A stretch of DNA of 58,896 nucleotides, taken from an uncultured Candidatus Bathyarchaeia archaeon (lineage in GTDB: Archaea > Thermoproteota > Bathyarchaeia > Bathyarchaeales > Bathyarchaeaceae). Where the stretch lies: assembly GCA_964618655.1 (NCBI GenBank), contig CAZUFG010000001.1, positions 1-58,896 of the forward strand, read 5' to 3'. Below are positions 3,246 to 38,854 of the stretch, piece by piece. Position 1 is the stretch's first letter. Every line of letters starts with the position of its first letter. The position numbers and the translations under genes are program-made. The notes below the pieces were generated by a model. That model was not told the origin of the DNA. It saw only the letters and a program-made list of their open reading frames with translations, and searched no databases.

Positions 3246-3272
3246 ATTTAAGGTTTCTGGAACTTACCTCTA
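3246..3272 (-). promoter_or_regulatory. Island promoter: TATA box (TTAAAT, 3246-3251) plus upstream palindromic box TAGAGGTAAGTTCCA (3258-3272)
   Basis: Read on the minus strand the order is box, 6 nt, TATA. It lies about 66 nt upstream of ATG 3180. The same layout occurs at 10 other island genes. Confidence 0.6.
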
Positions 3273-3461
3273 TCGGATGGCAAATTTATATTCGTAAATT
3301 GTATTAGAAGCAAGGTGTATACGATTTCCTGACTACCGCAGATTTTCATTCGTGACAAAACTATCGATATAAGTATTAACACTGAGAGAAAGCAGGAAAC
3401 TTGTCTTTCCAAACTTATTGGGAGGAGTTTAATAGAGAAGTAGGAGGTAGATGGGTATGGT

Positions 3462-3480
3462 AAAAGAGGGGGAGGGGAAG
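3462..3480 (-). terminator. Pyrimidine-rich/oligo-T terminator-like tract 3' of the 3486-4988 gene
   Basis: The minus strand reads CTTCCCCTCCCCCTCTTTT just after the stop. The same CCCCT..TTTT pattern follows several minus-strand genes in the island. Confidence 0.4.
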
Positions 3481-3485
3481 TTTCC

Positions 3486-4988
3486 CTATGGTTTTGCTAC
3501 TGATACTCTGCAATGAGTGAGACTTCTTCGTCTCTTAGTCCAAGCCATTTTTGAGAAAGCTACGCAAATCAAGGTTGCGGCTAAGAATAGCACTAGAACA
3601 ATAATTTCTGGCATTTCTGGGACTACCCATGTACCGATAATGTAGACTGTTGGGGTGCTGAAGTTTAAACTCAAAGACAAGATTACGTGTGTAGCGTTCT
3701 CCTCAACTATCGGAGTTGTCGTTTGTCCGCAAATAATGACAAACCATTGCCCCGGTGAAGCGTAGAGTAGGTTCCTTGGAATGGTTATGTTGACAAAGCC
3801 ACTGCCTTCGCCTGTAACGTTGAACATTAGCAACCTGTTGGGTTGAACGAGTATCATCGGAACCGGAGTAATCGATCCGTTACTTACCGTTGTAACATAG
3901 AATGTTTGGTTCTCCCAAACGATCTCATGGACGAGCGTTTCGATGAGGAATTCGTAGTAGCCGCTCTCTACATAGTGTAGAAGCAAGTTAGTGTCAGGGT
4001 CAGCAAGTATCGTGTCAAACAGTTCTAGAGTACAGACGCTTGGCGGTCCTTTAGTAGCATTGAAGGTTATTGTGGCTAGTGTTCCGTTTCCCTCAGGGAA
4101 TGTTGTCCAATTGCCTTCACCCGAACCTTGAGGAATCAATAGGATGCCGAGCAAAATGTAGTCCTCATCGATGATCGGCCCAAAATAGAAGACTTCGCCG
4201 AACTGTTCCATGAAAGTGCCATTTAACACTTCCACAACCTCTAGGAAGTTTGTGTCGTAGCGTAACTTGAACTCTAAGCCGACAAGCTTCATACTAGTGA
4301 CTACGTCGTAAATGGTAATGTTGATGTTGAAGACTTCGCCTGAGCGTGTTGGCGCATATGTTTCAGGTTCCACTTTCATTAGTGCCGGAGGTAATGGAGG
4401 TACAATATATGAGTAGCTGCCATCTTCCACACTTGTCGGAAGCGGACCCGCCTCTGGATCGCCAACTATAACATCATATAGGTCAAGGAGACAAGACGCG
4501 GGAGCCTCCTGCACAATTTTCAGGGTTATTCTTGCCAAGGTTCCATTACCAGATTTGGGAACATACCCTTTTTCTATGGCTCTGGTTATGTTGTAGTATG
4601 TAACAGCGTACTCTGCATAGCCGCCATATATCGACTTTGCGAGGACCCAGAGGTTTCCGGCGTCGCTGTCAGGCGTCATGAAATGGCCTGTTGGAAGGTC
4701 AATGCTTATACCTTCTAGAATGGTGCTGTTCCAACTAAGTTTGAATTCCACACCTCCAACGTTTGCTGCGTCTCTGATTTTCACGTCAACGGTAAATGTG
4801 TCATCTACTGCTGTTGTGTTAGAATAGAATATGCTTTCAGGAGGATCAACATAAACTGTTTGTTCTTGGGCACGCACTGGAAAGATGATTACTCCACTTG
4901 CGACACTTAATAGTAATAAAGCAGTTAAGAAAAGCCACAGCAGTTTTCCCACTTTATTATTTGAAGATATGTTTTTCATTTTTATCAC
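3486..4988 (-). CDS. Membrane-anchored scaffoldin-like protein: signal sequence, two cohesin-like modules (class A then class B), a beta-rich module and a C-terminal PEF-CTERM-like anchor
   Basis: 500-aa ORF. Class A cohesin: VDVKIRDAANVGGVEFKLSWNSTILEGISIDLPTGHFMTPDSDAGNLWVL...KSGNGTLARITLKIV. Class B cohesin: KLVGLEFKLRYDTNFLEVVEVLNGTFMEQ...GNGTLATITFNA. The C-terminus is VVPEMPEIIVLVLFLAATLICVAF followed by KMAWTKRRR. There is no dockerin. Confidence 0.7.
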   Translation of the reverse strand: MIKMKNISSNNKVGKLLWLFLTALLLLSVASGVIIFPVRAQEQTVYVDPPESIFYSNTTAVDDTFTVDVKIRDAANVGGVEFKLSWNSTILEGISIDLPTGHFMTPDSDAGNLWVLAKSIYGGYAEYAVTYYNITRAIEKGYVPKSGNGTLARITLKIVQEAPASCLLDLYDVIVGDPEAGPLPTSVEDGSYSYIVPPLPPALMKVEPETYAPTRSGEVFNINITIYDVVTSMKLVGLEFKLRYDTNFLEVVEVLNGTFMEQFGEVFYFGPIIDEDYILLGILLIPQGSGEGNWTTFPEGNGTLATITFNATKGPPSVCTLELFDTILADPDTNLLLHYVESGYYEFLIETLVHEIVWENQTFYVTTVSNGSITPVPMILVQPNRLLMFNVTGEGSGFVNITIPRNLLYASPGQWFVIICGQTTTPIVEENATHVILSLSLNFSTPTVYIIGTWVVPEMPEIIVLVLFLAATLICVAFSKMAWTKRRRSLTHCRVSVAKP

Positions 4989-5010
4989 GTTGGCTTAGTT
5001 ACGACAATTA

Positions 5011-5030
5011 CATATAAGAAATTTTCTCTA
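5011..5030 (-). promoter_or_regulatory. Variant island promoter: box TAGAGAAAATTTCTT (5016-5030) overlapping the TATA box (CTTATATG, 5011-5018)
   Basis: It has the same TAGA(A/G) half-site, but here the distal half of the box is replaced by the TATA box itself. It lies 23-30 nt upstream of ATG 4988. Confidence 0.35.
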
Positions 5031-5135
5031 ATAGAATTCGGATTCTGGGTAATCTTTTTTAAAAAACACTTTTGAAATGAAAGTGAGGAAAGAGGAAGGG
5101 GTTAAGATTTGTTGAATTTGCCTTCTTTTCAGAGT

Positions 5136-5786
5136 TTAACGTTTAGTGTTTCTTGGCAAAGTCTTCTTTGTTATGATGATAGCGACGAGTGTTGCAATCA
5201 TAAATACTGGCAATAGTAAGATTGCCGGAAACTCTGGTAATACTGTGACTTCACCATCAATTGCAACGTTGGGAAGAGGTTCTCCATCAATGTCGCCAAT
5301 TATGACATCATAAAGGTGTAGAGTTGTCTTACCCCATGTCTTGCTGACAAACGTGATTGTTGCTAAGATTCCATTACCAGATTTAGGCGCATAGCCTAAT
5401 TCAACAGCTCTGGTCGTGTTCATGAATGTGACACCATACGATGCGGTCCCTGCGTCATTGTCTACATTCAGCCAGAGAACCCAGAGGTTCCCGGTATCGC
5501 CGTCAGGCGTCATGAAATGGCCTGTTGGAAGCACCATCTCTGTAGCATTAAGAATTGTAGAGTTCCATCCGAGTACAAATTGTACGCCCTCAACACTGGC
5601 AGCGTATGCAATAGTTACATTCACTTTAAAGGTTGTGCCAATTTCTGCTTCTGGCACTACCTTTGAGGCTGGGTCTACTGTCACCGTCATTTGTTGCGCT
5701 CTCACAAGATTAATAGTGACGCTGACTACAAATAGAATGGCCAACATCATTAATAATGCTGTTTTTCCTTTCTTCAAATCATTCAC
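5136..5786 (-). CDS. Membrane-anchored single-cohesin protein with a PEF-CTERM-like sorting signal
   Basis: 216-aa ORF. Signal sequence: TALLMMLAILFVVSVTINLVRAQ. Class A cohesin: FKVNVTIAYAASVEGVQFVLGWNSTILNATEMVLPTGHFMTPDGDTGNLWVL...KSGNGILATITFV. The C-terminus is VLPEF-PAILLLPVFMIATLVAIIIT-KKTLPRNTKR, that is a PEF motif, a TM helix and a basic tail. Confidence 0.7.
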   Translation of the reverse strand: MNDLKKGKTALLMMLAILFVVSVTINLVRAQQMTVTVDPASKVVPEAEIGTTFKVNVTIAYAASVEGVQFVLGWNSTILNATEMVLPTGHFMTPDGDTGNLWVLWLNVDNDAGTASYGVTFMNTTRAVELGYAPKSGNGILATITFVSKTWGKTTLHLYDVIIGDIDGEPLPNVAIDGEVTVLPEFPAILLLPVFMIATLVAIIITKKTLPRNTKR

Positions 5787-5829
5787 CTAACATTGTATAG
5801 AGTTGACTACATTTTCTGATGGTATAGGT

Positions 5830-5844
5830 TTTTAAACTTTTCTA
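5830..5844 (-). promoter_or_regulatory. Variant island promoter: half-box TAGAA followed by TATA (TAGAAAAGTTTAAAA)
   Basis: It has the same layout as the 5011-5030 variant. It lies about 45-58 nt upstream of start 5786. Confidence 0.3.
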
Positions 5845-5932
5845 GAGTTTCAGATTTTTAAAAGGCAGAAGTGCAGCAGGTAAAGCCCAGACGATTACTT
5901 TAGGTTTTTCAGGGGCATAATTTCGTTTAGTT

Positions 5933-5952
5933 AAAAAAGAAAAGAGAGTGGG
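5933..5952 (-). terminator. Pyrimidine/oligo-T tract 3' of the 5953-7860 gene
   Basis: The minus strand reads CCCACTCTCTTTTCTTTTTT immediately after stop codon TGA (5953-5955). Confidence 0.4.
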
Positions 5953-7860
5953 TCAGCATGATTTTCCAAATCTGCCTGCGAGTATGATCATGTCTAGAAT
6001 GTTCACGGTGCCGTCCCTATTCAGGTCAGCCCATGGATTCCATCTTGGATGCCCTTCAGATGTGCCGAATGCGTCCGCGGCTATGATACAGTCCAGTATA
6101 TTAACCTTCCCGTCGCCGTTTATGTCGCCCAAGATTCTAATTTTCACTTGGCCGTCAGTGAAGATATTATCTGTCAAGTCGGTCTCGTACGGAACTTGAT
6201 CGGCTTCTGCACTTATATTGTAGTAGTGGCATGGCTGCACGCCCTTGGTAATCCATGTTATAGTAACGTTTGTCTCGTTGCCTGGAGCCAAATCATTGAC
6301 AGTAACTTCTCCAATTGCATTTCCGTCATATTTGGCAGTGACGTTGAATGTTTCTGATAGGTTTCCTTCGTTTCTGACCGTTATGGTGATGTTAACTGGC
6401 CATCCCTCGTATGTCATGTTTTGAGCTGGAACCACATTGACTACAGCCACGTCTCTTATGAGTGTCATGAAGAAGCCATCTCCCACTTCGTGAGGCATCG
6501 GATTTCCAGACGAGTCGGTAAGGCTAGTACTGTTCAAGTCCAGAACTGTCCATCCAATGGAGTCAACTTGGAATAGAATATTGACTAATGGCAATGGAGT
6601 AAATGTTGTGATTGGACTTGCTGGAGGATCTAACGTAACGTTAACCCACACGTAACCAACCTTGTCGTCAACAATGAATTTGCCACTTGGACGAATTCCA
6701 CTTAGGTCTGGGCAGATGATGGCACCCCAGCAGGTTAGGACACGCGTATCATAAGTTAGGTTAAATATGTAGTTGTATAGGCTATCAACGTCATCGACCA
6801 TTATTGTAATGTTGAAAGTTGCAGGCGGCAACATTGTTGGATCGATGATTTCTGGCGGTTCCACGTAGAGTTTCGCCATCATAATGTTGTTAAAGGAGCC
6901 GTTAGAAGTTGTGTGGGGAAGAGGCTCATCCAATTGATCGGTAAGTTCGGTTTCAGAGAGAGTTAGGGCGCTTGCTCCTAAGCCTTCAACATGGAATGTT
7001 ACAATCGCTAAAGTTCCGTTACCGCTTATAGGCGGTTCTGGTGAAGATAGAGAGGCTGAGAACGTTAAGTAGCCAGCTGTATTGTTTATTTCCTTGAGCG
7101 GCGTGACTGTGGGCGGGAAGAAGTCTCCTAATACGACGTCTGTGGCGTTTAATATGCTGGGATCAAAGCTTAGTTTAAATTGGAAACTGTAAACGTCAGT
7201 TGCATTGGCGATTGTTATGTTAACATCAAAGTTGTTGCACGGAACCAGAGCGGGGTCGAAAATTTTTGGTGGATTCACATAGATTTTAGCGGTTGGTGGC
7301 GGTGGTGAATTCTTAAAGTATCCATCGATGGCGTCGTGAGGTAACGGATTAGCCTCGATGTCTCCAATTATGCTATCTGTTAAGTCTATGATGCTGGAGC
7401 CTATGTCCTTCACTTTTAACGTGATCTTTGCTAGGGTTCCGTTGCCAGATTTGGGCGCATACCCCTTTTCTATGGCCCTCGTCAGGTTCTTGTATGTAAC
7501 AGCGTACTCTGCATAGCCGCCATATATCGACAGTGCGAGGACCCAGAGGTTTCCGGTGTCGCTGTCAGGCGTCATGAAATGGCCTGTTGGAAGCTCAATG
7601 CTTACACCTTCCAAAATGGCGCTGTCCCACTGAACCTTGAATTGTGGACCTCCAACGTTTGCTGCGTCTCTGATTTTCACGTCGACGGTAAAGTTTTGTT
7701 CCGGAAGCAGAGTTGGATCAACTATGCTTGGCGGGTCTATATAGATTTTCATTGCAGCCGGATCAGCGGAAACCGTGTTTAGTGGGAACTGAATCATGCT
7801 GAGTAGGAATAGAATCAAAACTACAGATAACATACTCTCGATTTTTTTCGTCATTGCCAC
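5953..7860 (-). CDS. Adaptor scaffoldin-like protein: signal peptide, three cohesin-like modules, a CARDB-like module and a class C dockerin
   Basis: 635-aa ORF. Cohesin 1 is class A (AANVGGPQFKVQWDSAILEGVSIELPTGHFMTPDSDTGNLWVL). After a PPPP linker come cohesin 2 (ATDVYSFQFKLSFDPSILNATDVVLGDFF...GNGTLAIVTFHV) and cohesin 3 (VDSLYNYIFNLTYDTRVLTC). The CARDB-like segment is RDVAVVNVVP...VNITITVRNEGNLSETFNVTAKYDG...TDLTDN. Confidence 0.75.
   Translation of the reverse strand: MAMTKKIESMLSVVLILFLLSMIQFPLNTVSADPAAMKIYIDPPSIVDPTLLPEQNFTVDVKIRDAANVGGPQFKVQWDSAILEGVSIELPTGHFMTPDSDTGNLWVLALSIYGGYAEYAVTYKNLTRAIEKGYAPKSGNGTLAKITLKVKDIGSSIIDLTDSIIGDIEANPLPHDAIDGYFKNSPPPPTAKIYVNPPKIFDPALVPCNNFDVNITIANATDVYSFQFKLSFDPSILNATDVVLGDFFPPTVTPLKEINNTAGYLTFSASLSSPEPPISGNGTLAIVTFHVEGLGASALTLSETELTDQLDEPLPHTTSNGSFNNIMMAKLYVEPPEIIDPTMLPPATFNITIMVDDVDSLYNYIFNLTYDTRVLTCWGAIICPDLSGIRPSGKFIVDDKVGYVWVNVTLDPPASPITTFTPLPLVNILFQVDSIGWTVLDLNSTSLTDSSGNPMPHEVGDGFFMTLIRDVAVVNVVPAQNMTYEGWPVNITITVRNEGNLSETFNVTAKYDGNAIGEVTVNDLAPGNETNVTITWITKGVQPCHYYNISAEADQVPYETDLTDNIFTDGQVKIRILGDINGDGKVNILDCIIAADAFGTSEGHPRWNPWADLNRDGTVNILDMIILAGRFGKSC
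5956..6135 (-). other. Dockerin module, class C
   Basis: ILGDINGDGKVNILDCIIAADAFGTSEGHPRWNPWADLNRDGTVNILDMIILAGRFGKSC. It has a duplicated DxNxDGxxNxxD calcium loop plus helix. Confidence 0.9.
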
Positions 7861-7907
7861 CTTCTCCTCTCTTCCTTGCTGATAAATACAATGTGAGGGT
7901 TTGGGGA

Positions 7908-7934
7908 TTATAAGGCTTCTGGAACTAACTTCTA
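7908..7934 (-). promoter_or_regulatory. Island promoter: TATA (TTATAA, 7908-7913) plus box TAGAAGTTAGTTCCA (7920-7934)
   Basis: The gap between box and TATA is 6 nt. The TATA box lies 48 nt upstream of ATG 7860. The SD-like sequence GGAGAAGGTGG precedes the ATG. Confidence 0.6.
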
Positions 7935-7975
7935 AGCCTTTTTTATGACCACGAGGCTATGTTCCCTATTTTTAG

Positions 7976-8722
7976 CTAAGTTTCGCTTTTTCCGAAGTTT
8001 TCAGCAAGTTTTATGGCGTCAAGAATGTTGACGACACTATCCTTATTGAGGTCTGCTCTGGAGTCCCAGTTCGGATCGCCTGGCTTTGAACCGAAGGCTT
8101 TCGCTAATATGATGGCATCAAGAATATTTACGGTGCCGTCTCCATTGATGTCGCCTAGCAGTGGTGGTGAATTCTTAAAGTATCCATCGATGGCGTCGTG
8201 AGGTAACGGATTACCCCCGGGGTCTCCAATTATGCTATCTATTAAGTCTATGATGTTGGAGCCTGTGCCCTTCACTTTTAACGTGATCTTTGCTAAGGTT
8301 CCGTTGCCAGATTTTGGTGCGTAGCCCTTTTCTATTGCTTTGGTCATGTTGTAGTATGTAACGGCGTAGTTTGCATAGCTGGCGTATATCGCCTTCGTGA
8401 TTATCCAGAGGTTTCCGGCGTCGCTGTCAGGAGTCATGAAATGGCCTGTTGGAAGCTCAATGCTTACACCTTCCAAAATGGCGTTGTTCCAACTAAGCCT
8501 GAATTCCACACCTCCAACGTTAGCTGCATCTCTGATTTTCACGTCGATGGTAAAGTTTTTTTCCGGAAGCAGAGTTGGATCAATTATGCTTGGCGGGTCT
8601 ATGTAGATTTTCATTGCAGCCGGATCAGCGGAAACCATGTTGGGTAGGAACGGGATCATGCTGACTAGCAATAAAATCAAAACTACATAGGACATGCTCA
8701 TGATTTTTTTCGTCATTGCCAC
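7976..8722 (-). CDS. Minimal cohesin-dockerin protein: signal peptide, class A cohesin and class A dockerin
   Basis: 248-aa ORF. Its N-terminal 190 aa are near-identical to those of the 5953-7860 product (MAMTKKI.SM...DPAAMKIYIDPPSI.DPTLLPE.NFT.DVKIRDAANVGG...). The dockerin follows directly after NSPPLL. Confidence 0.8.
   Translation of the reverse strand: MAMTKKIMSMSYVVLILLLVSMIPFLPNMVSADPAAMKIYIDPPSIIDPTLLPEKNFTIDVKIRDAANVGGVEFRLSWNNAILEGVSIELPTGHFMTPDSDAGNLWIITKAIYASYANYAVTYYNMTKAIEKGYAPKSGNGTLAKITLKVKGTGSNIIDLIDSIIGDPGGNPLPHDAIDGYFKNSPPLLGDINGDGTVNILDAIILAKAFGSKPGDPNWDSRADLNKDSVVNILDAIKLAENFGKSET
7979..8161 (-). other. Dockerin module, class A
   Basis: LLGDINGDGTVNILDAIILAKAFGSKPGDPNWDSRADLNKDSVVNILDAIKLAENFGKSET. 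Confidence 0.9.
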
Positions 8723-8768
8723 CTTCTCCTCTCTTCCTTGCCCGTAAATATATTAGGGGGTTTGAGGA

Positions 8769-8796
8769 TTAATAAAGCTTCTAGAAGTAAGTTCTA
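8769..8796 (-). promoter_or_regulatory. Island promoter: TATA-like TTTATTAA (8769-8776) plus box TAGAACTTACTTCTA (8782-8796)
   Basis: The box is a perfect TAGAA-N5-TTCTA inverted repeat. It lies within the duplicated intergenic unit, 47 nt upstream of ATG 8722. Confidence 0.55.
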
Positions 8797-8838
8797 AGCC
8801 TTTTTTTACTGACTACTAGGCTATGTTCTTCTTTTTGG

Positions 8839-9687
8839 CTAAGTTTCTCTTTTTCCGAAGTTTGCAGCAAGTTTTATGGCGTCAAGAATGTTGACGGCGT
8901 TATCTTTGTTGAGGTCTGCTCTCGGGTCCCAGTTTGGAGATCCCTGCTTTGAACCGAAGGCTTTCGCTAATATGATGGCATCAAGAATATTTACGGTGCC
9001 GTCTCCATTGATGTCGCCTAGCACTGGTGTAGTCGTTGAGACTCTTATGGTATAGGTTTTGTTGCTCTGCAGTCCGAGGCTGTCGGTGACGGTTAGGGTC
9101 ACGGTGTAGTTTGCTTCTGTAGTGTAAACATGTAGTATGGTTGCATTACTTACAGTTGTGATGTTGCCGTCGCCGAAATCCCACTTATAACTTACAATTG
9201 GAAGAATGTGCGTCCCGTTCCAGCCGGGTGATGACCTAGAAGCATTAAAGATAACGGTTTCATTTGGATAGGGTCTGGATGGGTACCATACGAAGTCAGC
9301 TGTGGGTCCCGTGGGCGGTATGACATCTATTGGTTTAGATTTGGTGCACCATAACCCTTCACTGTCTGTTATGTTTAGGGTAACGGTGTATGTTCCCGTT
9401 TTTGTGTAGATGTGAGTTGCTATGGGTTGCGTTTCGTTGATTTTGGCCGTGTCGTCGCCGAAGTCCCATTCGTAACTAATGATAGTCCCTCCGTCAGGTG
9501 TTGAGGATGAAGCGTTAAAGGTTACTGTTGTGTTGACGTAGGGCTGGAGTGGCGAATAGGTGAAGGAGGCTTGTGGTGTGGATTCAGCATAAACTAGGAC
9601 TTTATCATTGAGAAGTCTTGTTGCAGTTGCTGTGCATCCAAATACGAATAATGCTGTAAGAATAATGCATCTCATTTTCATTTGCAT
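8839..9687 (-). CDS. Secreted protein with two PKD domains and a class A dockerin
   Basis: 282-aa ORF. Signal peptide: MRCIILTALFVFGCTATA. PKD signatures: FNASSSTPDGGTIISYEWDFGDD...YTVTLNITDSEG and FNASRSSPG...VSYKWDFGDGN...YTVTLTVTDSLG. Confidence 0.8.
   Translation of the reverse strand: MQMKMRCIILTALFVFGCTATATRLLNDKVLVYAESTPQASFTYSPLQPYVNTTVTFNASSSTPDGGTIISYEWDFGDDTAKINETQPIATHIYTKTGTYTVTLNITDSEGLWCTKSKPIDVIPPTGPTADFVWYPSRPYPNETVIFNASRSSPGWNGTHILPIVSYKWDFGDGNITTVSNATILHVYTTEANYTVTLTVTDSLGLQSNKTYTIRVSTTTPVLGDINGDGTVNILDAIILAKAFGSKQGSPNWDPRADLNKDNAVNILDAIKLAANFGKRET
8842..9024 (-). other. Dockerin module, class A
   Basis: VLGDINGDGTVNILDAIILAKAFGSKQGSPNWDPRADLNKDNAVNILDAIKLAANFGKRET. Confidence 0.9.
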
Positions 9688-9734: not shown

Positions 9735-9766
9735 TTTTATTTTAAGCATTGTGACGCTCATTTCCA
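9735..9766 (-). promoter_or_regulatory. Probable island promoter with a degenerate box TGGAAATGAGCGTCA (9752-9766) and an A/T-rich TATA region (9735-9746)
   Basis: The spacing of 5 nt from box to TATA is the same as at the other promoters, but the half-sites are weaker. Confidence 0.35.
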
Positions 9767-9792: not shown

Positions 9793-11070
9793 TCAACCAG
9801 TCTTTTTTCCAAAGTTTGCTGCAAGTATTATGGCGTCGAGGACGTTGACGACGTTATCTTTGTTGAGGTCTGCTCTCGGGTCCCAGTTCGGATCGCCTGG
9901 CTTTGAACCGAAGGCTTTCGCCAGTAAGATGGCGTCGAGGACGTTGATGATGCCGTCGCCGTTAATGTCGCCTAGAAGAAAAATTGTGAATGTTGTGCTA
10001 TTGGTAGCTACTGGTCGGTTTAAATATCGGGAAGTTGAGTATGCTGTATACTGGCCTGATGGTGCACGATAACCCTCGGTGCTTGGTAGTTTAAACAATA
10101 GGCTGTAGGTTCCCTCTGTAGACGTAAAGTAAACTATTTTGCTTGTAGATGTTGTCGTGGTCGATGCACCTCCACCTCCGACAGAAATCGTGAAGGTCGC
10201 AGATTTCTCCGGGCAGTATGGTGTTCCCCCATTCTTCGGCAGTTTGTCAAAGAGGCTGGCGTACACCGTTGCGTTACCGAGGGTGGCCAAATCTGGAATG
10301 AGTACCTCCGTAGACGCCCAGCTAGTTGAACCTGGTGAAACCTCCATTACGACTAGAATAGTGGCGAAGAAGGGAACAGTTTTCACGTCATATATATTGA
10401 TTGTAGCCATCACAGTTCTCGAATCATTGTCATTGTTTTTGAATGTTACTTTAAAATACGCTAGTTTTCCCCTTTCGAAGACGTATTTGGGATTCAGATA
10501 TGAATCGCATGGCAGCACCTCCAGAATCTCTACCAACGGGTTGCTGGGAGGCGTAGCACCTGTGGGCAGGGTTCTGAGGATGAATTCTTCATTCAATGGA
10601 TTGTTTGTCTGCAAACCTACTAGGCCATCTGGGACGGGTGACTGGCCTAATGTTAAGTTTCCAGAAACTCGGACGCTTTGTCCTGGGTTGTAGATGGTTT
10701 TATCTGCTGTCACAGTAACTTTAAGTAGTCCGAGAATGTTTATCGGTTTTGTTGTGGTACACCATAACCCTTCATTGTCTGTTACATTGAGTGTAACAAT
10801 GTATGTTCCGGACAGCGTGAAACTATGTGTTGTTATTGGATCCGTTTCTACAATTTCAGGTGTGCCGTCGCTGAAATTCCATTTATACGAGATGATGTAT
10901 CCGTCGGGATCGTAGCTTTCTGAGGCATTGAATGTGACCGTCGTGCTTTGAAAGGGTTCAAGTGGTGAGTAAGTAAAGTAGGCCTCAGGAGGTTGTATCG
11001 AAAAGCATGTTTGGGCTCCTGCCAAGAACAGTAAGGAAATTAAAAATGTAAAAATTACTTTCTTAAGCAT
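9793..11070 (-). CDS. Secreted protein: PKD domain, two beta-sandwich-like modules of unknown family, a G/T-rich linker and a class A dockerin
   Basis: 425-aa ORF. Signal peptide: FTFLISLLFLAGAQTCFS. PKD signature: FNASESYDPDGYIISYKWNFSDG...YIVTLNVTDNEG. Linker: GGGGASTTTTSTS. Confidence 0.75.
   Translation of the reverse strand: MLKKVIFTFLISLLFLAGAQTCFSIQPPEAYFTYSPLEPFQSTTVTFNASESYDPDGYIISYKWNFSDGTPEIVETDPITTHSFTLSGTYIVTLNVTDNEGLWCTTTKPINILGLLKVTVTADKTIYNPGQSVRVSGNLTLGQSPVPDGLVGLQTNNPLNEEFILRTLPTGATPPSNPLVEILEVLPCDSYLNPKYVFERGKLAYFKVTFKNNDNDSRTVMATINIYDVKTVPFFATILVVMEVSPGSTSWASTEVLIPDLATLGNATVYASLFDKLPKNGGTPYCPEKSATFTISVGGGGASTTTTSTSKIVYFTSTEGTYSLLFKLPSTEGYRAPSGQYTAYSTSRYLNRPVATNSTTFTIFLLGDINGDGIINVLDAILLAKAFGSKPGDPNWDPRADLNKDNVVNVLDAIILAANFGKKTG
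9796..9978 (-). other. Dockerin module, class A
   Basis: LLGDINGDGIINVLDAILLAKAFGSKPGDPNWDPRADLNKDNVVNVLDAIILAANFGKKTG. Confidence 0.9.
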
Positions 11071-11113: not shown

Positions 11114-11141
11114 TTACTAAAGCTTTTGGAACTAATTTCTA
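11114..11141 (-). promoter_or_regulatory. Island promoter: TATA-like TTTAGTAA (11114-11121) plus box TAGAAATTAGTTCCA (11127-11141)
   Basis: The gap is 5 nt. The TATA box lies 44 nt upstream of ATG 11070. Confidence 0.55.
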
Positions 11142-13171: not shown

Positions 13172-13198
13172 ATTTAAGTGTTCCGGAATTATCTTCTA
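13172..13198 (-). promoter_or_regulatory. Island promoter: TATA (TTAAAT, 13172-13177) plus box TAGAAGATAATTCCG (13184-13198)
   Basis: The gap is 6 nt. The TATA box lies 48 nt upstream of ATG 13124. Confidence 0.55.
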
Positions 13199-16288: not shown

Positions 16289-16316
16289 TTTAAAAGTCTT
16301 ATGGAAAAATGTTACA
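16289..16316 (-). promoter_or_regulatory. Divergent promoter region between the SBP and permease genes: TATA-like TTTTAAA (16289-16296) plus box TGTAACATTTTTCCA (16302-16316)
   Basis: The box closely resembles the 38382-38396 box (shared ATTTTTCCATAA). It sits inside the larger inverted repeat CTTATG...CATAAG (16298-16320). Further TATA-like elements lie at 16268-16275 and 16337-16344. Confidence 0.45.
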
Positions 16317-31754: not shown

Positions 31755-31805
31755 TTTCCTTTCTCCTCTTAATCTTGGGCACAGAAGTTTATGTTATCAT
31801 TAACC

Positions 31806-31831
31806 CTTAAATTTTTTGTGACTTTCTTCTA
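31806..31831 (-). promoter_or_regulatory. Island promoter of the protease gene: TATA-like AATTTAAG (31806-31813) plus box TAGAAGAAAGTCACA (31817-31831)
   Basis: The layout is the same as at the other island promoters. The TATA box lies about 52 nt upstream of ATG 31754. SD-like sequence: GAGGAGAAAGGAAA. Confidence 0.5.
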
Positions 31832-31944: not shown

Positions 31945-34569
31945 TTAAGGATCTGGCCTTACTTCTCCGAAGTGATTGGCTATCAGTATACAATCGAGGA
32001 TGTTTACGACTTTATCGTGGTTTATGTCTGCCAGTGGGTTCCAGCGTGGATGACTTGGGCGGGTTCCAAAAGCGCCAGCTAAAATAATACAATCTAGTAT
32101 GTTGGTTCTTCCATCGAAGTTCAAATCGCCCATTGAGGTTGGTACTATGTCGTAATATCCATGTTCCACGTCGTGTGAGATTGTGTTTGATTCGGTGTCG
32201 CCGAGTATGGTGTCAAACAATGTCAGGTTGCATGAGAGTATTGGATTTTCTAAGCCCATGAGTTGATATTTAACCCTGAATGTTATCGTTGCTAGGGTCC
32301 CGTTCCCGCTTGGGAATGTTGTCCAGTTGCCTATTCCTGTGCCTTGAGGAATTAGCAGGATTCCTAGTTGAACGTAGTCTTCTTCTATGATTGGGCCATA
32401 ATAGAGGGTTTCGCCGGCTTGTTCCATGAAGGTGCCGTTGGATACTTCAACGATCTCCAGAAGGGTTGTGTTATAGCGGAGCTTAAACTCTACACCAACA
32501 AGTTTCCATGCCCAACTTAGACCATTGATGGTTATGTTGATGTCGAAGGTTTCGCCTAGTTGCTTGGCGTGGTAGGTTGGAGGCTCCACTTTTAGTAGTG
32601 GGCTGGGTAGCGGCTTTGGATAATCCAGCCATGGGTCATACAGAACATAATCGCTGACATCGTCGCCTAAACCGTAATGCGGGCCATAGGGTTGTCCCAT
32701 GTAAAGCCAGCTTGTCTCATGATACGGTCCAGTTGCGTCGCCCCACCAATTGTAGCGGGCGTCAAAGGTTACATTGTTGCCAGCGTAGTCGGGGTCTTGG
32801 ATAACGCCGTATTCTCTGTTGTTGTAGATGTTGTTGTAGTTGGCGTATGAGTACGAGTTTGCGACTACTTCAATTCCGTAGTAGTTGTTATAAATGTCGT
32901 TGCAGCTCATAACAACCGTAGAAGATGGCAGATCATAGAAAGCTACCCATCCGTCAATTACTATGCCAGCAGAAGACCAAGATGGTGATGGATGCGTATT
33001 GTCGCAGTTGTATATGTCATTTCCAAGAATTTCAACATCGCATGGTTCGTTCCAAGGCTCTATTTCAATTCCATAGTTAACGTAGTCTTGATCGCTGTAG
33101 ACTTGACCTTCTATAATACAGCTGTATACTCCACCGCTACAACCGTCATAGAAGAACACTCCTATTCGCCCAAAGTTTTTGACTGTGCATTTCCCTGACG
33201 CTTACATCTGAGCCATCCCAAATTCCAATAGCGCTACCAACCATGTCGCCAATGGTATTTGGAGATATTATGCAACCTCTGATTGTTCCTATCGACTCTT
33301 CGTATATAACTCCATAATTTTTACCGGGGCCTAATCCCTGTCCTTCGATATCCAAGTGCCACAAGGTTACGACAGCATTCTCGACAAAAATCACTGCTTC
33401 TCTGGTTCCATAGTTAGTGGTGAATGAACCGCTCCCTTGGACTATAGGAAGGCTTGCGCCAATTATGGATATATTCTTGTTTATGTATAATGCTTCGTTG
33501 TATGTGCCTTCATGCACCATTACTGTGTCGCCTGGGCTTGCTTCGTCTATAGCCTCTTGAATAGTTCCAGTTGGGTTTACATGATAAGTTCTTGGAGTAG
33601 TTTCAAAGGTTGCGCCGAGCCATGGACTGTAATCAACATAGTCGCTGATGGCGTCTCCTGTGCCGCCTGGATTAGATGAATGCGTTGGACCGCTTGCGTC
33701 ACCCCACCAGTTAAAGCGAGCATCGAATATCTGACTTGAATCCCAGTTTCTGACACCTTCAGTGTTGCCATAGAGATTGTTGTAGTGTGCCGTGTTTCCA
33801 GGTCCGGGTTCATCTCCAGACCCAGTGTAGTATGGGGAGCCAGGCCCCAAGAGGTGGATTCCGTAGTAGTTGTCGTGGATTTGGTTGTATTCGATAACAT
33901 TGTAGGCGCATTCTGCTGCCCATTCTAGTTCTATGCCCTGAGAGCAGTCGTAAACTTCGTTACCGCGGACAGTGCTATAGCTGCTCGGACCTATACCAAT
34001 GTCATTGTCGTATACCTCGTTGTACTCAATTATGACCCCGTCTTTTGCTGCATACCCCATTATGCCGCAACTCAACCATGTTGTTCCCGAATATTTATTG
34101 TTGGAGACTGTGTTGTAGCTAACAGTGCCTCCAGTCTCGAAAGCGAGGACTATGCCGTTTGGAACCTGATCCGGCCCGATTGTACCTGGGCCGACGATGG
34201 TATTGTCGTGTATGTCAACGGTCAGCTGAGCTCCTCGCGCTGTGATGCCGTTCTTGTTATAATAGCTGATGCGAGAATTCTCAACCTCTACCGAAACTGA
34301 GGTGCTGACGGCGTCCAGCCACATCCCATAGGTGCGAGTGGCAATTGGTACGCTGTTCATGTTAACGACCGTCACATCGTCTATGGTGCCAGCGGTCTCG
34401 CCATATGAGATGCCTACAACATAGTTTGCTCCTCCAGGGAGCCCATCTACGTTAACTCCATCCACTTTAAGATCTTCCACTGTGACACCCGCGGTTCCCA
34501 CGTTCTCGACGCTTATGATGCTTGCGAGCTCTTGGCCATTCCAGAAAGCTCCTGCCTGAGTCCCAAGAG
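31945..34569 (-). pseudogene. 3' fragment of a split parallel beta-helix (NosD/CASH-like) - cohesin (class B) - dockerin (class C) gene, also carrying a 1-nt frameshift
   Basis: Track ORFs 33146-34501 and 31945-33159 are consecutive pieces of one protein. The frame of the upstream piece stays open beyond the assigned GTG up to 34609, with no ATG, signal peptide or promoter. Beta-helix rungs and two (A/D)R(F/Y)NWWGDA(S/T)GP motifs are present. Cohesin: WKLVGVEFKLRYNTTLLEIVEVSNGTFMEQ...GNGTLATITFRV. The frames switch at the T3C3 run 33190-33195. Deleting one nt there gives ...GIWDGSDVSVRECTVKNFGRIGVFFYDG.... Confidence 0.7.
31948..32130 (-). other. Dockerin module, class C
   Basis: GDLNFDGRTNILDCIILAGAFGTRPSHPRWNPLADINHDKVVNILDCILIANHFGEVRPDP. 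Confidence 0.9.
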
Positions 34570-34575
34570 TATAAA

Positions 34576-34838
34576 ATGAGAAAGCAGCTCTTGCCGAGCG
34601 GCGCGTTGCTTATTGATAATCGAGTCGCTTGGGCGAGAACCTACCTTGGCAAGGCTGGGCTTATTGAAGGCACCAAGAGAGGTTTCTTCTCTTCACTGCT
34701 CAGGTTGAACGCATCTGAAACGTGCTCGATGGTCTCGCGCAAGGAATGCTCTTTTTCATCCCCAAGAAACCTCAGGAAAGGAAGCATCATATGCTCGTGG
34801 CTGGGAACGGTCATAGTTGAAAATATGTCACAGTGCAC
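34576..34838. pseudogene. Two convergent remnants of an Mrr-type restriction endonuclease N-terminal (Mrr_N winged-helix) domain. The catalytic domain is absent.
   Basis: Minus strand 34814 down to about 34694 encodes MTVPSHEHMMLPFLRFLGDEKEHSLRETIEHVSDAFNLSSEE (compare E. coli Mrr MTVPTYDKFIEPVLRYLA...). Plus strand 34576 to 34689 encodes MRKQLLPSGALLIDNRVAWARTYLGKAGLIEGTKRGFF (compare E. coli ..SGQLVYKNRAGWAHDRLKRAGL...). These are the first and second halves of one domain, encoded on opposite strands and meeting at about 34690. Confidence 0.65.
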
Positions 34839-34950
34839 TTAAATGACTTTACAGTTTTCTGGCATTCGAACAATGTATAGAGACGCTCCGTTGCCACTTA
34901 TTGGAAGTCTAGGTCTTCTTCTGCTGTCCATGTTTCTTCACAGTCCGTGC

Positions 34951-35070: not shown

Positions 35071-35142
35071 AGACTAGGCTCTCCTCAGCGTGCCTAAAAT
35101 AAAAAAACATGATGTTGATGTGTATCGCTCGCGCAATGGCAA

Positions 35143-35664
35143 CTAAGCACCTTGTGGAGACGCTATGTATCCCACGAAATCTGCAAATATGCCGTTTGTC
35201 CCTGGATCAGCGTCCCTATACCAGTCCGTTCCCGTCATTTCAAGCTTCAACAGCAAACCCTCATAAGCAGCCGTACCATGGCCTTCAAGTTTACCCTGGA
35301 ATTGGATGTAGTTTGTGTCCTTCACCGTGAACATTCCTTCAAACGTGCCCTCAGCCCCAGAGATCGTGAACGAGCCAAAACCAACTCCTTCCCCGGTTTT
35401 CAAGCTGAAAACAGCATATAACACGATCTCTAACACTCCGGTCAAACGTGGATCCGAGCTTGCGATAGGCCCTGATGCTTCCGCACCCACTTGGCGCACC
35501 ATTCCACTCTTGAGAACATATATGTCACCTGGCCAAGTTGCAGTCATACTCATAGTTCCCGTGACCTCAGTTCGTACTGCAGGTGCAACTACAATTCCAG
35601 GCGCTGTGATCGATAGCGCTAGCAAAGCTACGATAACCATCAAAACTCTCCTCAAATCTCTCAC
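35143..35664 (-). CDS. Small secreted protein of unknown function
   Basis: 173-aa ORF. Signal peptide: MRDLRRVLMVIVALLALSITAPG. It has an island-type promoter upstream. The GTG start is overlapped by the SD-like GGGGAGGTG. Confidence 0.55.
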   Translation of the reverse strand: MRDLRRVLMVIVALLALSITAPGIVVAPAVRTEVTGTMSMTATWPGDIYVLKSGMVRQVGAEASGPIASSDPRLTGVLEIVLYAVFSLKTGEGVGFGSFTISGAEGTFEGMFTVKDTNYIQFQGKLEGHGTAAYEGLLLKLEMTGTDWYRDADPGTNGIFADFVGYIASPQGA

Positions 35665-35722
35665 CTCCCCTCTCTACTTCTCATAAACAGATAGAACCCG
35701 TGCAAAACCATGCTCTTTTTGC

Positions 35723-35750
35723 TTTAAAACACTTGTGAAACTATCTTCTA
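35723..35750 (-). promoter_or_regulatory. Island promoter: TATA-like GTTTTAAA (35723-35730) plus box TAGAAGATAGTTTCA (35736-35750)
   Basis: The gap is 5 nt. The TATA box lies about 59 nt upstream of start 35664. Confidence 0.5.
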
Positions 35751-35948
35751 GTGGCACGCACTAATACCCGGATAATTTGTGTGTTTGCGTGTGTAGCGCG
35801 CCCAAGATTACACTTTAATTGGGCTTTGACAACCTCAAAGTTCAACAAATCAAGAAGTAGGACCCGCGCGCTGCCTCTTGCCGATCACGGATGTGGCCTA
35901 AAAAAGAGGGGAGTTATGGAGATGTTGCCACTAAAACTTGGTCACTCA

Positions 35949-36878
35949 TCAGACTGCAGGGTTGAATATGTGCGGTGGAACACCATCATATGCGCGATTC
36001 TCGCCAAGATTTCTGGAGATGACGTTGTAGTTTACCAATTCTGGGGGATAGCAGAAAACGAAATCATAACTGCTTCTTCTGAGATCGTTGAAACCAATCA
36101 TGTTGCCTAACATATACGTCTGCGGAGGTAGCGTTTGATTCCATGCAGCCATTGCTATGGCGAATGTCCACCCAATCCAACCTGTCATCACAATTCTGTT
36201 GTGAACAACTTTGTTACCCGTCACCTGCCCTCCCCACGATGACAGGGCGATGCCAGCATTGATGTCGATGCTGACAGGGAAGTCCGCGGTTATTTTGTTG
36301 AAGGCAACAAGATTATCATTGGCTGGAAGATTGAGTATCCAAGATGAGACGATCCAGATTCCTAATCCTCCAGTAGTAAGATTCGTCAGTCCATTTATGT
36401 CATTATATCTTATGACCCATCTGTTGCCACACACGCATGTAACTCCCTGGAAAGGCGCATTCATAATGTTGTGCTCAACAGTCACTTCGTCAACAACTCT
36501 ACCAAAGACTGGCAGGTCCACAAAAAACGTAAATCCGCTTATGGTTGCCCCACTCGAGGTCCATGCCTCAAGAAAGAACCCTATGTTGATTGTGGAATCC
36601 AAACCGTAGGGCGGCCCATCCACGATGACTGCTCCGCCTTCTCCCATGATTTCGACAGACTTGTTCACTATTGCCCCGTAATATTCGCCAGGTCCAACAA
36701 TGATTTTGTCTCCTGGCAGTGCGGAGTTAATAGCCTCTTGAATGGTTGGATAATTATCTGGAACTTTGATTATCTTTGGTTCGGCACCTACTGACACTGT
36801 AGCTATGGTTACGGTCAGCAGAAACACGGTCATTATTGTTGCCAATGCACGTGATGCATTTCTTGTTTCTATTCTCAT
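35949..36878 (-). CDS. Secreted parallel beta-helix (NosD/CASH-like) protein
   Basis: Track ORF 35949-36902 starts at TTG. I prefer ATG 36878 (MRIETRNASRALATIMTVFLLTVTIATVSVGA), which has GAGGA 8 nt upstream. The N-cap motif YPTIQEAINSALPGDKIIVGPGEYYGAIVNKSVEIMG is typical of the family. Confidence 0.7.
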   Translation of the reverse strand: MRIETRNASRALATIMTVFLLTVTIATVSVGAEPKIIKVPDNYPTIQEAINSALPGDKIIVGPGEYYGAIVNKSVEIMGEGGAVIVDGPPYGLDSTINIGFFLEAWTSSGATISGFTFFVDLPVFGRVVDEVTVEHNIMNAPFQGVTCVCGNRWVIRYNDINGLTNLTTGGLGIWIVSSWILNLPANDNLVAFNKITADFPVSIDINAGIALSSWGGQVTGNKVVHNRIVMTGWIGWTFAIAMAAWNQTLPPQTYMLGNMIGFNDLRRSSYDFVFCYPPELVNYNVISRNLGENRAYDGVPPHIFNPAV

Positions 36879-36924
36879 TTTTAAATCCTCTTGAACATTC
36901 AAACAACTATTACGTATGCAGTAG

Positions 36925-36951
36925 TTATATGCCTACTGAAACTATTTTCTA
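36925..36951 (-). promoter_or_regulatory. Island promoter: TATA (ATATAA, 36925-36930) plus box TAGAAAATAGTTTCA (36937-36951)
   Basis: The gap is 6 nt. The TATA box lies 47 nt upstream of ATG 36878. Confidence 0.55.
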
Positions 36952-37008
36952 TAATCTTCCTCCACATCTAAAAGCGCGCGCTAGCTCACGTTACTGAAAG
37001 CGCACACT

Positions 37009-37413
37009 TCACTTCTTTCTGAGCTCGTTGTTTCTGCATGTGTAGCAGCGTAGGCCCTGAATCCAAGCTTGAGAAAGGCGACAGTAAACTTTGCCGTCGC
37101 TTGTAGCTCCGGCTAGGTGAAGCCAACACAACACCCGCATCGGACTAGCAGCAGCAGAATCCAAGTACGTAGCAATCTTCAACTGCGGATTACCCTCACC
37201 ATGACGCCGATTATACTCCTTCACAGCATTCATCAACACTTTACTAAAGCCTCTAGAACCAGCTTCACGCCTAGCGATTTCCCTAAACTGCACAAAATCC
37301 GCCACATCACAAGGCTCAACAGAAAAACTGGAAACAAAAGCCTTCGTCAAACTGGATGCTGATGCGAAAACGCTATGAAGCAAATGGAACAACAAGCGCC
37401 ATACTACAAACAA
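37009..37413 (-). CDS. Small hypothetical protein, possibly ribbon-helix-helix-like at the N-terminus with a Cys-rich C-terminus. The start is uncertain.
   Basis: The 134-aa track ORF has a TTG start and no internal ATG near the N-terminus. SSFSVE-DVADFVQFREIARRE-GFSKVLMNAVKEYNRRH fits a strand-helix-helix pattern. The C-terminus has four Cys (VLCW...VYCRLSQAWIQGLRCYTCRNN). A shorter TTG start (..TKAFVSSFSV) is plausible. Confidence 0.4.
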   Translation of the reverse strand: MFVVWRLLFHLLHSVFASASSLTKAFVSSFSVEPCDVADFVQFREIARREAGSRGFSKVLMNAVKEYNRRHGEGNPQLKIATYLDSAAASPMRVLCWLHLAGATSDGKVYCRLSQAWIQGLRCYTCRNNELRKK

Positions 37414-37541
37414 ACACTTTCAGAGAACATCCATACGAAATAAGCACTATTTTGATAGACCTTCCAGACGCTTCCATAAACATTCTTGTCAAAGGTAACA
37501 ACAAAATAGCTCAATGGCTCTGGAAGCTCATAACAGATGAC

Positions 37542-38321
37542 TTAAAGAGAGGTCAATTTGTCGGTTCCAGAAGGCTGGATGATGGTGGTGTTGCCGGTGC
37601 CTTGGAGCGTTAGGCTCGTATTGATGACTACCTGTTCGTCATAAGTTCCCTCGTAGGCGTATATTGTTTGTCCTGGGGTTGCAGCGTTTACGGCTGCTTG
37701 AATTGTGTCGAAGAAGCTGGCTGGGTCAAGTTCTGCCGTGTTCCAAATGGTTAAGTCAATCTTTACTGGCCAATCACCAACAGAGATTATGACATCGCCT
37801 GGAGTATAGCTTTGGCTAAGATCCCAATCTTCAAAGACGATTACTTCAATATCTGTTGGTCCAATGCCAGCAGGGCGGTTAACGATTGTCTTGATATAGG
37901 TAGTGCTTGAGAAGCCAGGTAGTAAGTAATAGTTGGGAGCACCAACAATCAACTCCAATTGATAGCCTGGATAAAGCGTCGGACACACGACAGGTCCAGC
38001 CGGCCACCAAGTAATGCCATCAAGTGACCACAGAAACGTTAAGTCTGCAGGAATAATTCCCGGACCGACATTTTCTCTGTAGAAAACTCCGGTAAGCCAT
38101 GGTGCTGGTGGGCTTCCACCAACGTTCGTTACAGTTCCCTTTACTGTGACTTTTGAGCCTGCAGTAGCGCCTAGTGTCGCATAAATTTGATTTGCAGCGT
38201 CGTTTACTATTAGGCTTGGCCCAGTTACGCTAGCTTCAACAGGTTTTACGTTTAGTATGAGTGGCATCGTGCTTAAGAGAAGCATTAGAAGCATTGATAT
38301 CGATACTAACTGCTTTTTCAT
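37542..38321 (-). pseudogene. 5' fragment of the split beta-helix/cohesin/dockerin gene: signal peptide, ~190-aa beta-rich domain and the first beta-helix cap, then a premature stop at the insertion boundary
   Basis: 259-aa ORF. Signal peptide: MKKQLVSISMLLMLLLSTMPLILNVKPVEA. It ends ...FFDTIQAAVNAATPGQTIYAYEGTYDEQVVINTSLTLQGTGNTTIIQPSGTDKLTSL*, that is directly after the N-cap motif that opens multi-rung beta-helices in its paralogues. Confidence 0.6.
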
Positions 38322-38370
38322 TTCTCCTTTCTCCTCATATGAGGGTGAACATAATTGTTTTCTAGTGAGA

Positions 38371-38396
38371 TATTAATTTTATGGAAAAATTTTCTA
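38371..38396 (-). promoter_or_regulatory. Island promoter: TATA-like AAATTAATA (38371-38378) plus box TAGAAAATTTTTCCA (38382-38396)
   Basis: The TATA box lies about 50 nt upstream of ATG 38321. SD-like sequence: GAGGAGAAAGGAGAA. Confidence 0.5.
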
Positions 38397-38839
38397 TAAC
38401 CAATTGTTCTAATTTTTTTTATCATTTAATACATAAAACGTGGTCAATGACGTTGCCTAATGGATTGTATCTTATCATTCGATAAATAAAATGAAGTCAT
38501 TTACAAAAAATGTTCCAAAAACTCGCACATAGAATTACATTATTAGTAAAATGACAAAGCTTTATAAATGGAAATCATACACACAGTTAAGCGGGGAAAG
38601 AGGTAGCCATAAAACCAATTGCGCCTGCGCAATAACAGTAAAACCCTTTCTCTTCTCTCCCTTCTCTTTCCCCCACCCTTCATAATCTATGGAAAAGAAT
38701 GTTCTTGTTTTTGGCGAAAATTCCAGCTGTTAAGGTTTTGAATAAACTTTTTCATACCTGTTTAATTATGTCTACTGATTGAAATTTGGCGTGGTAAGTT
38801 TTCATTAAGCTTAATCTAATACTTTGCTGTTAGTTTCAA

Positions 38840-38854
38840 AGAAACTATTTTCTG
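38840..38854. promoter_or_regulatory. Orphan copy of the island palindromic box (minus strand CAGAAAATAGTTTCT), about 50 nt upstream of the TATA box of the wHTH-TM-cohesin gene
   Basis: Its centre matches the 36937-36951 box (AGAAAATAGTTTC). No TATA box sits at the usual offset on the minus strand. This position would suit autoregulation of the divergent plus-strand gene. Confidence 0.35.

Follow-up and report, generated by a model that had tools for sequence, protein, structure and literature searches.

Introduction

In archaea, a factor site upstream of the TFB recognition element (BRE) and the TATA box leads to activation, and a site downstream of them leads to repression. Known activators that act near the BRE and the TATA box are Ptr2 from Methanocaldococcus jannaschii, TFB-RF1 from Pyrococcus furiosus, Tar/TK0271 from Thermococcus kodakarensis and TrmBL1/Tgr at gluconeogenic promoters. 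The operators of NrpR lie at or after the start site and are repressing. In bacteria, the cellulosome genes of Clostridium thermocellum are under sigma/anti-sigma control by SigI/RsgI. Here we analyse a DNA stretch of 58,896 nucleotides from an uncultured Candidatus Bathyarchaeia archaeon (contig CAZUFG010000001.1, positions 1 to 58,896; the whole stretch is referred to as the window), in which most genes for secreted cohesin and dockerin proteins carry a common 15-base promoter element, referred to as the box. As a preliminary description of the window had proposed, the box keeps a constant distance to the TATA box downstream of it and marks the gene set of this island. The same composite of box and TATA box is found in many other Bathyarchaeia. 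The box is very probably the docking site of a transcription factor that co-regulates extracellular protein machinery.

Tar/TK0271, the TrmB family and TrmBL1 are treated in parts of the archaeal activator literature (PMC6737238, PMC4158304, PMC4706686). Like archaeal upstream activator sites, the box is semi-palindromic, lies at a fixed distance directly upstream of the BRE and belongs to a functionally coherent gene set. Unlike them, it has another sequence, occurs in another clade, the Bathyarchaeia, and has the extracellular cohesin/dockerin machinery as its targets, for which activation is a prediction. The NrpR operator of methanogens, GGAA-N6-TTCC (PMC2723118), has inverted GAA/TTC arms as the box does, and nitrogen-related targets (protease, peptide uptake) would make biological sense, but the box has a spacing of N5 and a position upstream of the BRE. 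As in the SigI/RsgI system, a promoter signature is common to cohesin/dockerin genes, and the gene set includes a candidate transmembrane regulator with a putative extracellular sensing domain. Unlike in that system, the promoters are archaeal TBP/TFB promoters with an upstream factor site, and the candidate regulator, a winged helix-turn-helix (wHTH) protein with a transmembrane (TM) helix and a cohesin domain, has a separate putative operator. Our literature search found no earlier description of the box motif or of cohesin/dockerin regulation in Bathyarchaeia, and no cis-regulatory element or regulon described for this group. The box appears to be a new archaeal factor-binding site with a regulon of the standard upstream-of-BRE type, and computationally it is well supported as such.

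The box in the window

According to Pfam scans, about 1–39.8 kb of the window form an island whose genes encode secreted proteins of the cohesin, dockerin, PKD, CARDB and beta-helix types. The island also encodes a 2131-residue S8 subtilase with dockerin, a dockerin-tagged SBP_bac_5 oligopeptide-binding protein and an Opp ABC transporter. To its right follow housekeeping genes, including those for ATP-dependent DNA ligase, adenylosuccinate synthetase and Rad50/Mre11. Contigs identical to the window contig are present in two metagenomes.

The box has the sequence TAGAA-N5-TTCCA, an imperfect palindrome with the arms TAGAA and TGGAA, and the wider consensus T(A/G)GAA-N5-TTC(C/T)A (Table 1). All 14 of the 15-mers quoted in the preliminary description are present on the minus strand where it had placed them. 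The distance between box and TATA box, previously given as 3–6 nt, is even tighter, with 5 or 6 nt at 11 of 11 promoter instances, and the TAGAA arm is always distal to the TATA box. For the 10 instances whose start codon is assigned, the TATA box lies 51–65 nt before it (44–66 nt in the preliminary description); no start is assigned for the instance at 3258. All box-driven open reading frames (ORFs) in the window begin with a signal peptide. The instances at 7920 and 8782 lie in duplicated DNA, as was noticed before: their promoters and 5′ coding sequences are near-identical. This tandem duplication comprises 7861–7975 and 8723–8838 (promoter and leader) together with the first codons of the cohesin-dockerin genes 5953–7860 and 7976–8722.

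Two further instances had been listed as weak. The one at 16302 is a conserved variant, TGTAA-N5-TTCCA: the form TGTAAnnnnnTTCCA, followed by taaaac and TTTTAAA, is found upstream of the corresponding SBP_bac_5 genes in the related loci L093 and L094, and L025 has the similar TGTAACTTTTTTCTA before a signal-peptide gene. The one at 9752 stays weak, with a poor sequence. Homologues of the cohesin gene 11235–13124 in L028 and L031 carry TAGAAGATAATTCCA, 6 nt and TTAAAT. The supposed variants of the two anchored-scaffoldin genes, with the TATA box in place of the proximal half-site (5016–5030 and 5830–5844), are not supported; they score below 8 bits, and the variant arrangement occurs in no homologue promoter.

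Chance frequency, one of the objections foreseen in the preliminary description, hardly explains the motif. With at most one mismatch, TAGAAN5TTCCA has 16 matches in the window and 5.4 ± 2.6 in dinucleotide shuffles, and 0 of 100 shuffles reach 16. With at most two mismatches the enrichment is gone (81 matches versus 70 in shuffles), thus the box arms matter. In an unbiased count of 4mer-gap-4mer dyads in the 6.2 kb of intergenic window DNA, AACT-N4-TCTA ranks first and TAGA-N7-TCCA second. Both of these box dyads outrank the dyads of ribosome-binding sites, and GGAA-N6-TCTA follows a few places lower, interspersed with the latter. When the arms are allowed to be degenerate, a spacing of N5 gives 9 intergenic matches and each spacing of N2–N4 and N6–N9 gives 0–1, while coding matches are flat at 3–9. 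Only N5 is enriched in intergenic DNA. The N6 spacing of an NrpR operator is excluded for the box, with 1 intergenic match for N6 against 9 for N5.

Perfect box arms are also present at 52747–52761 (TAGAATATGTTTCTA), inside the coding sequence of a small ORF of 108 residues (52460–52786). This palindrome was set aside as a true box and is probably a chance match. The box-driven genes have unusually long purine-rich ribosome-binding sites of the type GGAGAAAGGAGAA (e.g. 31755–31775 and 38322–38340), as have genes in related loci, and GGAG/AGGA/GGAA dyads are strongly enriched in the homologue promoters of other species, too.

Table 1. Boxes, related promoter elements and further features discussed in the text. 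Positions refer to the window unless a related locus is named; distances in nt are spacers between element and TATA box.
Feature	Position	Strand	Elements	Associated gene or role
Box	3246–3272	−	TAGAGGTAAGTTCCA (3258–3272), 6 nt, TTAAAT (3246–3251)	Large secreted protein running off the left window end
Box	7908–7934	−	TAGAAGTTAGTTCCA, 6 nt, TTATAA	Promoter of cohesin-CARDB-dockerin gene 5953–7860
Box, perfect arms	8771–8796	−	TAGAACTTACTTCTA, 5 nt, TTTATT	Promoter of cohesin-dockerin gene 7976–8722; duplicate of the 7920 promoter
Weak candidate box	9740–9766	−	TGGAAATGAGCGTCA, 6 nt, TTAAAA	Promoter of PKD-dockerin gene 8839–9687; geometry right, sequence poor
Box	11116–11141	−	TAGAAATTAGTTCCA, 5 nt, TTTAGT	Promoter of PKD-dockerin gene 9793–11070
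Box	13172–13198	−	TAGAAGATAATTCCG, 6 nt, TTAAAT	Promoter of cohesin gene 11235–13124
Variant box	16290–16316	−	TGTAACATTTTTCCA, 6 nt, TTTTAA	Promoter of SBP_bac_5-dockerin gene 13354–16236
Box	31806–31831	−	TAGAAGAAAGTCACA, 5 nt, TTTAAG	Promoter of 2131-residue S8 subtilase-CARDB-dockerin gene 25359–31754
Box	35724–35750	−	TAGAAGATAGTTTCA, 6 nt, TTTTAA	Promoter of 173-residue signal-peptide protein 35143–35664
Box	36925–36951	−	TAGAAAATAGTTTCA, 6 nt, ATATAA	Promoter of 309/317-residue signal-peptide protein 35949–36902
Box	38371–38396	−	TAGAAAATTTTTCCA, 5 nt, TTAATA	Promoter of 259-residue signal-peptide protein 37542–38321
Palindrome, no box	38832–38846	+	AGTTTC-AAA-GAAACT	Putative conserved distal operator of the wHTH-TM-cohesin gene
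Proximal element	38886–38911	+	GTTTTTTTTACAC (38886–38898), 5 nt, TATA TTTATAAA (38904–38911)	wHTH-TM-cohesin gene
Box-like site, 14.9 bits	56346–56373	+	TAGAAATTACTTATA, overlapping the second TAGAAAT repeat (TAGAAATGAATTAGA)	Lrp-like wHTH gene 56379/56400–56867
Exact copies of the palindrome	L091 9954–9968, L093 9890–9904, L094 9925–9939		AGTTTC-N3-GAAACT	Upstream of wHTH-TM-cohesin homologues
Perfect copies near p159	L005 4718–4732, L009 3098–3112, L011 12852–12866, L042 5556–5570, equivalents in L003 and L007		TAGAAnnnnnTTCTA	p159 gene of relatives
Small protein families	L019 15427–16072, L023 17895–18584, L025 18366–19860, L030 12899–15215, L043 19110–19511, L069 12553–12969, L076 12970–13368			Beside Opp operons and islands

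Anatomy of the promoter

For the promoter architecture, we aligned 37 sites on the box, nine of them non-redundant ones from the window and 28 from other species. In this alignment, information is confined to TAGAA, TTCCA, two A residues at +2/+3 and the TATA box. The box contains 1.1–1.2 bit per position, with up to about 1.9 bit in the arms, and the flanks and the downstream leader contain 0.1–0.2 bit per position. Counted from the first T of the TATA box, the box spans about −21 to −7, and the 5–6 nt spacing found in the window is kept in nearly all of the 28 other-species sites.

A set of 267 generic promoters is A-rich at −5 to −3 ahead of the TATA box, therefore the AA next to the box is the ordinary BRE, which fills the spacer between box and TATA box. 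These generic promoters have no conserved signal at −21 to −7, and the box is absent from them. The possibility that the box is the BRE itself was rejected: the BRE consists of the 6–7 bp directly upstream of the TATA box, and the box lies beyond it. The box abuts the BRE without overlapping the TATA box or the start site, and it is shared by a coherent set of promoters; both features are those of archaeal upstream activator sites. No phased second site is found within 100 nt upstream of the 37 boxes.

Conservation in other Bathyarchaeia

The comparison set consists of 80 loci (1.28 Mb) from species-representative genomes, nearly all Bathyarchaeota or Bathyarchaeia, which were chosen via their DNA ligases (73–84% identical to the window ligase). 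Further contigs (L091, L094, L096, L097) were reached through a different protein. Genes and signal peptides of the related loci were called by heuristics. A position weight matrix (PWM) was built from nine window sites only, and a composite was defined as a box with a TATA box at +3 to +8.

Scanning of the 80 loci gives 16 composites of at least 12 bits, whereas 20 column-permuted PWMs give 2.7 on average and 8 at most. For composites of at least 14 bits the numbers are 10 and 1.2. Two of the 15 top-scoring composites run off contig ends, and 12 of the other 13 lie 45–110 nt upstream of a signal-peptide ORF, seven of which show cohesin/dockerin homology. In a gene-centred test, the composite is present at 9 of 29 homologues of island proteins (cohesin/dockerin) versus 8 of 1091 other genes (Fisher p = 3e-11), and several of the latter eight also encode secreted proteins. 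A further 135 ORFs of these loci with a crude signal-peptide signature have no composite, thus the box is not a general secretome signal.

The box is recovered without the PWM, too. In a comparison of dyads between 31 homologue promoters and 715 background promoters, TAGA-N6-TTCC is present in 8 versus 1 (p = 3e-15, 32812 dyads tested), and TTCC-N6-CTTA, which corresponds to the fixed distance to the TATA box, in 6 versus 0. In the distant lineages L091, L094, L096 and L097, boxes are found upstream of cohesin, dockerin and CARDB genes. Some copies in other species read TGGAA-N5-TTCCA. The motif with its fixed geometry and its gene specificity is conserved across Bathyarchaeia.

Although the instances at 7920 and 8782 are duplicates and many island genes are paralogous, it is extremely unlikely that the box lacks a dedicated function and merely reflects promoter duplication among paralogues or chance in A/T-rich upstream DNA. 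The flanks hold about 0.1 bit where the arms hold up to about 1.9 bit, the box-bearing genes belong to unrelated protein families, and both the rediscovery without a PWM in other species and the enrichment specific to the N5 spacing speak against such an origin. Shuffles and permuted PWMs fall short of the observed counts. Furthermore, the ligase identity of 73–84% together with the differing gene content argues against recent horizontal copies of one island.

A proposed dimeric activator of a secreted-protein regulon

We favour the reading that the box is the site of one dimeric winged-helix activator of a secreted-protein regulon, with a factor of the Lrp/AsnC type as the favoured candidate, and assign it a probability of about 60%. 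Activation is favoured because known archaeal activators use just such an arrangement, a 15-bp imperfect palindrome bound by one dimer in fixed register beside the BRE. One dimer would bind the single box of each promoter, directly abutting the A-rich BRE, and the bound factor would contact TFB/TBP and stimulate formation of the pre-initiation complex. The co-activated regulon would comprise the cohesin scaffolds, the dockerin-tagged S8 protease, the PKD proteins, the dockerin-tagged oligopeptide-binding protein and several unknown secreted proteins. A factor of the Lrp/AsnC type would couple amino-acid status to extracellular proteolysis, scaffolds and peptide uptake. At a gene of relatives termed p159, where the palindrome is downstream of the TATA box, the same factor would repress. 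That a protein binds, that it activates and that it is of the Lrp/AsnC type are inferences from the sequence.

Like Lrp/AsnC operators, which are imperfect palindromes of 13–15 bp, the box has 15 bp divided 5-5-5, with conserved arms around an A/T-rich centre. The Ss-LrpB box, TTGCAAAATTTGCAA, also has 15 bp (PMC1802622). Arms of the form TAGAA...TTCTA fit yAGhA...TdCTr of the E. coli Lrp consensus yAGhAwATTwTdCTr (PMC5554404) exactly, and the TTCCA of the island box has one mismatch to TdCTr. In 15 related loci, the slot beside the ligase holds an AsnC-type regulator gene (Lrp160) divergent from p159. In six of these 15 loci a perfect TAGAAnnnnnTTCTA is located 8–10 nt downstream of the p159 TATA box, at the repression position, and one of them (L007, from the complete genome CP070759.1) has both this operator copy and an island-type box upstream of a dockerin gene. 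Because format and arms match Lrp operators and perfect copies adjoin an AsnC-type gene, the best candidate is a factor of the Lrp/AsnC type. Where relatives have no island at this place, the gene order after the ligase is a DUF5752 gene, then the AsnC-type regulator gene divergent from p159, an unknown gene of 150–160 residues. Repeated AAAATGTAGA motifs are also present in the intergenic region between Lrp160 and p159.

The window itself encodes an Lrp-like wHTH protein, and a box-like site is found upstream of its gene (Table 1), starting about 25 nt downstream of the TATA box TTTAAAT (56315–56321). It is a possible operator of this gene. The site is kept in a 90%-identical relative (L084), where the sequence just downstream diverges. 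Autoregulation of the gene via the box is not upheld, since the site is kept only in this close relative.

These sites downstream of a TATA box also bear on the opposite sign of regulation. If the box were a repressor operator, a dimer against the BRE would block TFB/TBP and silence the secreted-protein genes until an inducer, e.g. peptides or amino acids, is present. Such a role would be in line with the p159 promoters of relatives, where the same palindrome overlaps the predicted start site, a classical position for repression, and with the box-like site at the start-site position in the promoter of the window's Lrp-like gene. A footprint of the Ss-LrpB type, extending about 5 nt beyond the 15-bp box (PMC1802622), would reach the BRE. 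However, repressor sites need no fixed helical register, and the spacing is constant in all window sites and nearly all others; the invariant orientation with TAGAA distal also fits a protein–protein contact better than occlusion. We consider repression rather unlikely.

Several points weigh against the activator reading and have to be kept in mind. Of the island regulon at an activator position, as put forward in the preliminary description, the site position and the shared gene set are borne out, while the activator role is deduced from the position, and a dimer footprint at −21 to −7 could also occlude the BRE. There is a single box per promoter, unlike the cooperative phased arrays of classical Lrp, and the absence of such arrays counts against a classical Lrp nucleoprotein complex. 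Within the window no AsnC-type gene adjoins a box, and the box-like site of the Lrp-like gene is absent from its 39–57% identical homologues (L068, L085–L090). Among the 29 homologue promoters just 9 pass the threshold for PWM and TATA box, with visibly degenerate boxes in several more; either the regulon is partial or the PWM is too narrow. The PWM also matches coding DNA, for example with 21 bits inside the ligase gene of L093 (11816–11830, minus strand). Matches of up to 21 bits recur at one conserved ligase-coding position, in L093 and, at about 10758, in L049, L012, L019, L024, L027, L054 and L071. They reflect coding conservation. The 15-mer alone is thus not diagnostic; only its composite with the TATA box is.

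Other candidate factors and neighbouring genes

A neighbourhood search for a regulator gene common to the box-bearing islands yielded only recurrent small proteins of unknown function near Opp operons. These form two families without a Pfam match above threshold, which recur beside Opp operons and islands in relatives (Table 1). Proteins of the first have about 135 residues and start with M..W.GRNVDL.LL, and those of the second have about 83 residues and contain CP.HGLERF.

Two window ORFs were rejected as regulators. The ORF 37009–37413 has no match to a Pfam family, and a metagenome gene caller has an overlapping plus-strand gene (window 37362–37613) instead. The 57-residue ORF at 34641–34814 (minus strand) aligns with no more than the first half of the Mrr_N domain and appears to be the truncated remnant of a gene. 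Downstream of this remnant, the beta-helix gene 33146–34501 (minus strand) has no recognisable promoter, box or signal peptide. The remnant and the promoterless gene suggest decay or rearrangement in that part of the island.

The wHTH-TM-cohesin gene and its own putative operator

The protein encoded at 38947–39783 (plus strand) consists of a CPxCG and wHTH domain, one TM helix and a type II cohesin-like beta-sandwich. Its AlphaFold2 model has a mean predicted local distance difference test score (pLDDT) of 77, and Foldseek relates it to type II cohesins with E = 7e-6. Among 5.8 billion proteins, about 24 full-length members of this family turned up, each either from Bathyarchaeota or an unnamed metagenome protein; the N-terminal wHTH is the most conserved part. 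In six of six further contexts examined, the homologues (33–60% identity) lie inside cohesin/dockerin/Opp islands. The protein is a candidate for a membrane-tethered one-component regulator with an extracellular cohesin.

The orphan box which the preliminary description placed upstream of this gene (38840–38854) turned out to be half of a different palindrome, AGTTTC-N3-GAAACT, which is specific to the wHTH-TM-cohesin gene. The exact palindrome occurs once upstream of the gene in the copies of the window contig, L091, L093 and L094, and nowhere else among the 95 loci searched. Copies with one mismatch are found upstream of the L096 and L097 homologues, and none in L098. Closer to the gene, seven lineages share a proximal element, (A)GTTTyTTTTACAC, with 5 nt between its end and the TATA box; it takes the position of the box with a different sequence and, like the palindrome, is specific to this promoter. 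A half-site AGTTyC common to the box and the palindrome was considered and dropped, because positions 9–10 of the box are not conserved in other species. The palindrome is probably an (auto)regulatory operator of the wHTH-TM-cohesin gene. With a distinct conserved operator of its own, the protein most likely recognises AGTTTC-N3-GAAACT and not the box.

As the leading candidate for the box-binding factor the wHTH-TM-cohesin protein was rejected, since its own promoter carries this other conserved palindrome. In such a role, the membrane-anchored protein would bind the box and link extracellular cohesin–dockerin occupancy to transcription of the regulon. The island contexts of its homologues, five of six with boxes and L098 with none, the conservation of the wHTH and the modelled domain architecture would all be compatible with this. 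However, its own recognition sequence is more naturally sought in the palindrome and the other TATA-proximal element. The 80 ligase-linked loci, many of which have boxes, yielded no homologue, and the family is small. Binding of the box by this protein is quite improbable.

The box regulon and the wHTH-TM-cohesin protein could also form one circuit, in which the extracellular cohesin-like domain would sense docked dockerin partners on the surface of the cell and the cytoplasmic wHTH would adjust transcription of the entire extracellular machinery. The wHTH would do so directly, by way of its own AGTTTC-N3-GAAACT operator, or with the box-binding factor as intermediary. We regard such a circuit as improbable. 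If true, archaea would have in it an equivalent of cellulosome sensing by the clostridial RsgI/SigI system, made from a one-component transmembrane transcription factor.

Biological significance

Bathyarchaeia are among the most abundant uncultured archaea of anoxic sediments and are thought to live partly on detrital protein. The box provides a sequence handle for listing the genes that are co-regulated with the cohesin/dockerin surface machinery in any metagenome-assembled genome of Bathyarchaeia; in the window, the genes so listed include the protease, the peptide-binding protein and the scaffolds. As the same palindrome lies upstream and downstream of the TATA box in related genomes, it is also a test case for the archaeal rule that position sets the sign of regulation. 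Finally, the box is a short, defined DNA probe with which the regulator may be fished out or tested in vitro, free of culture.

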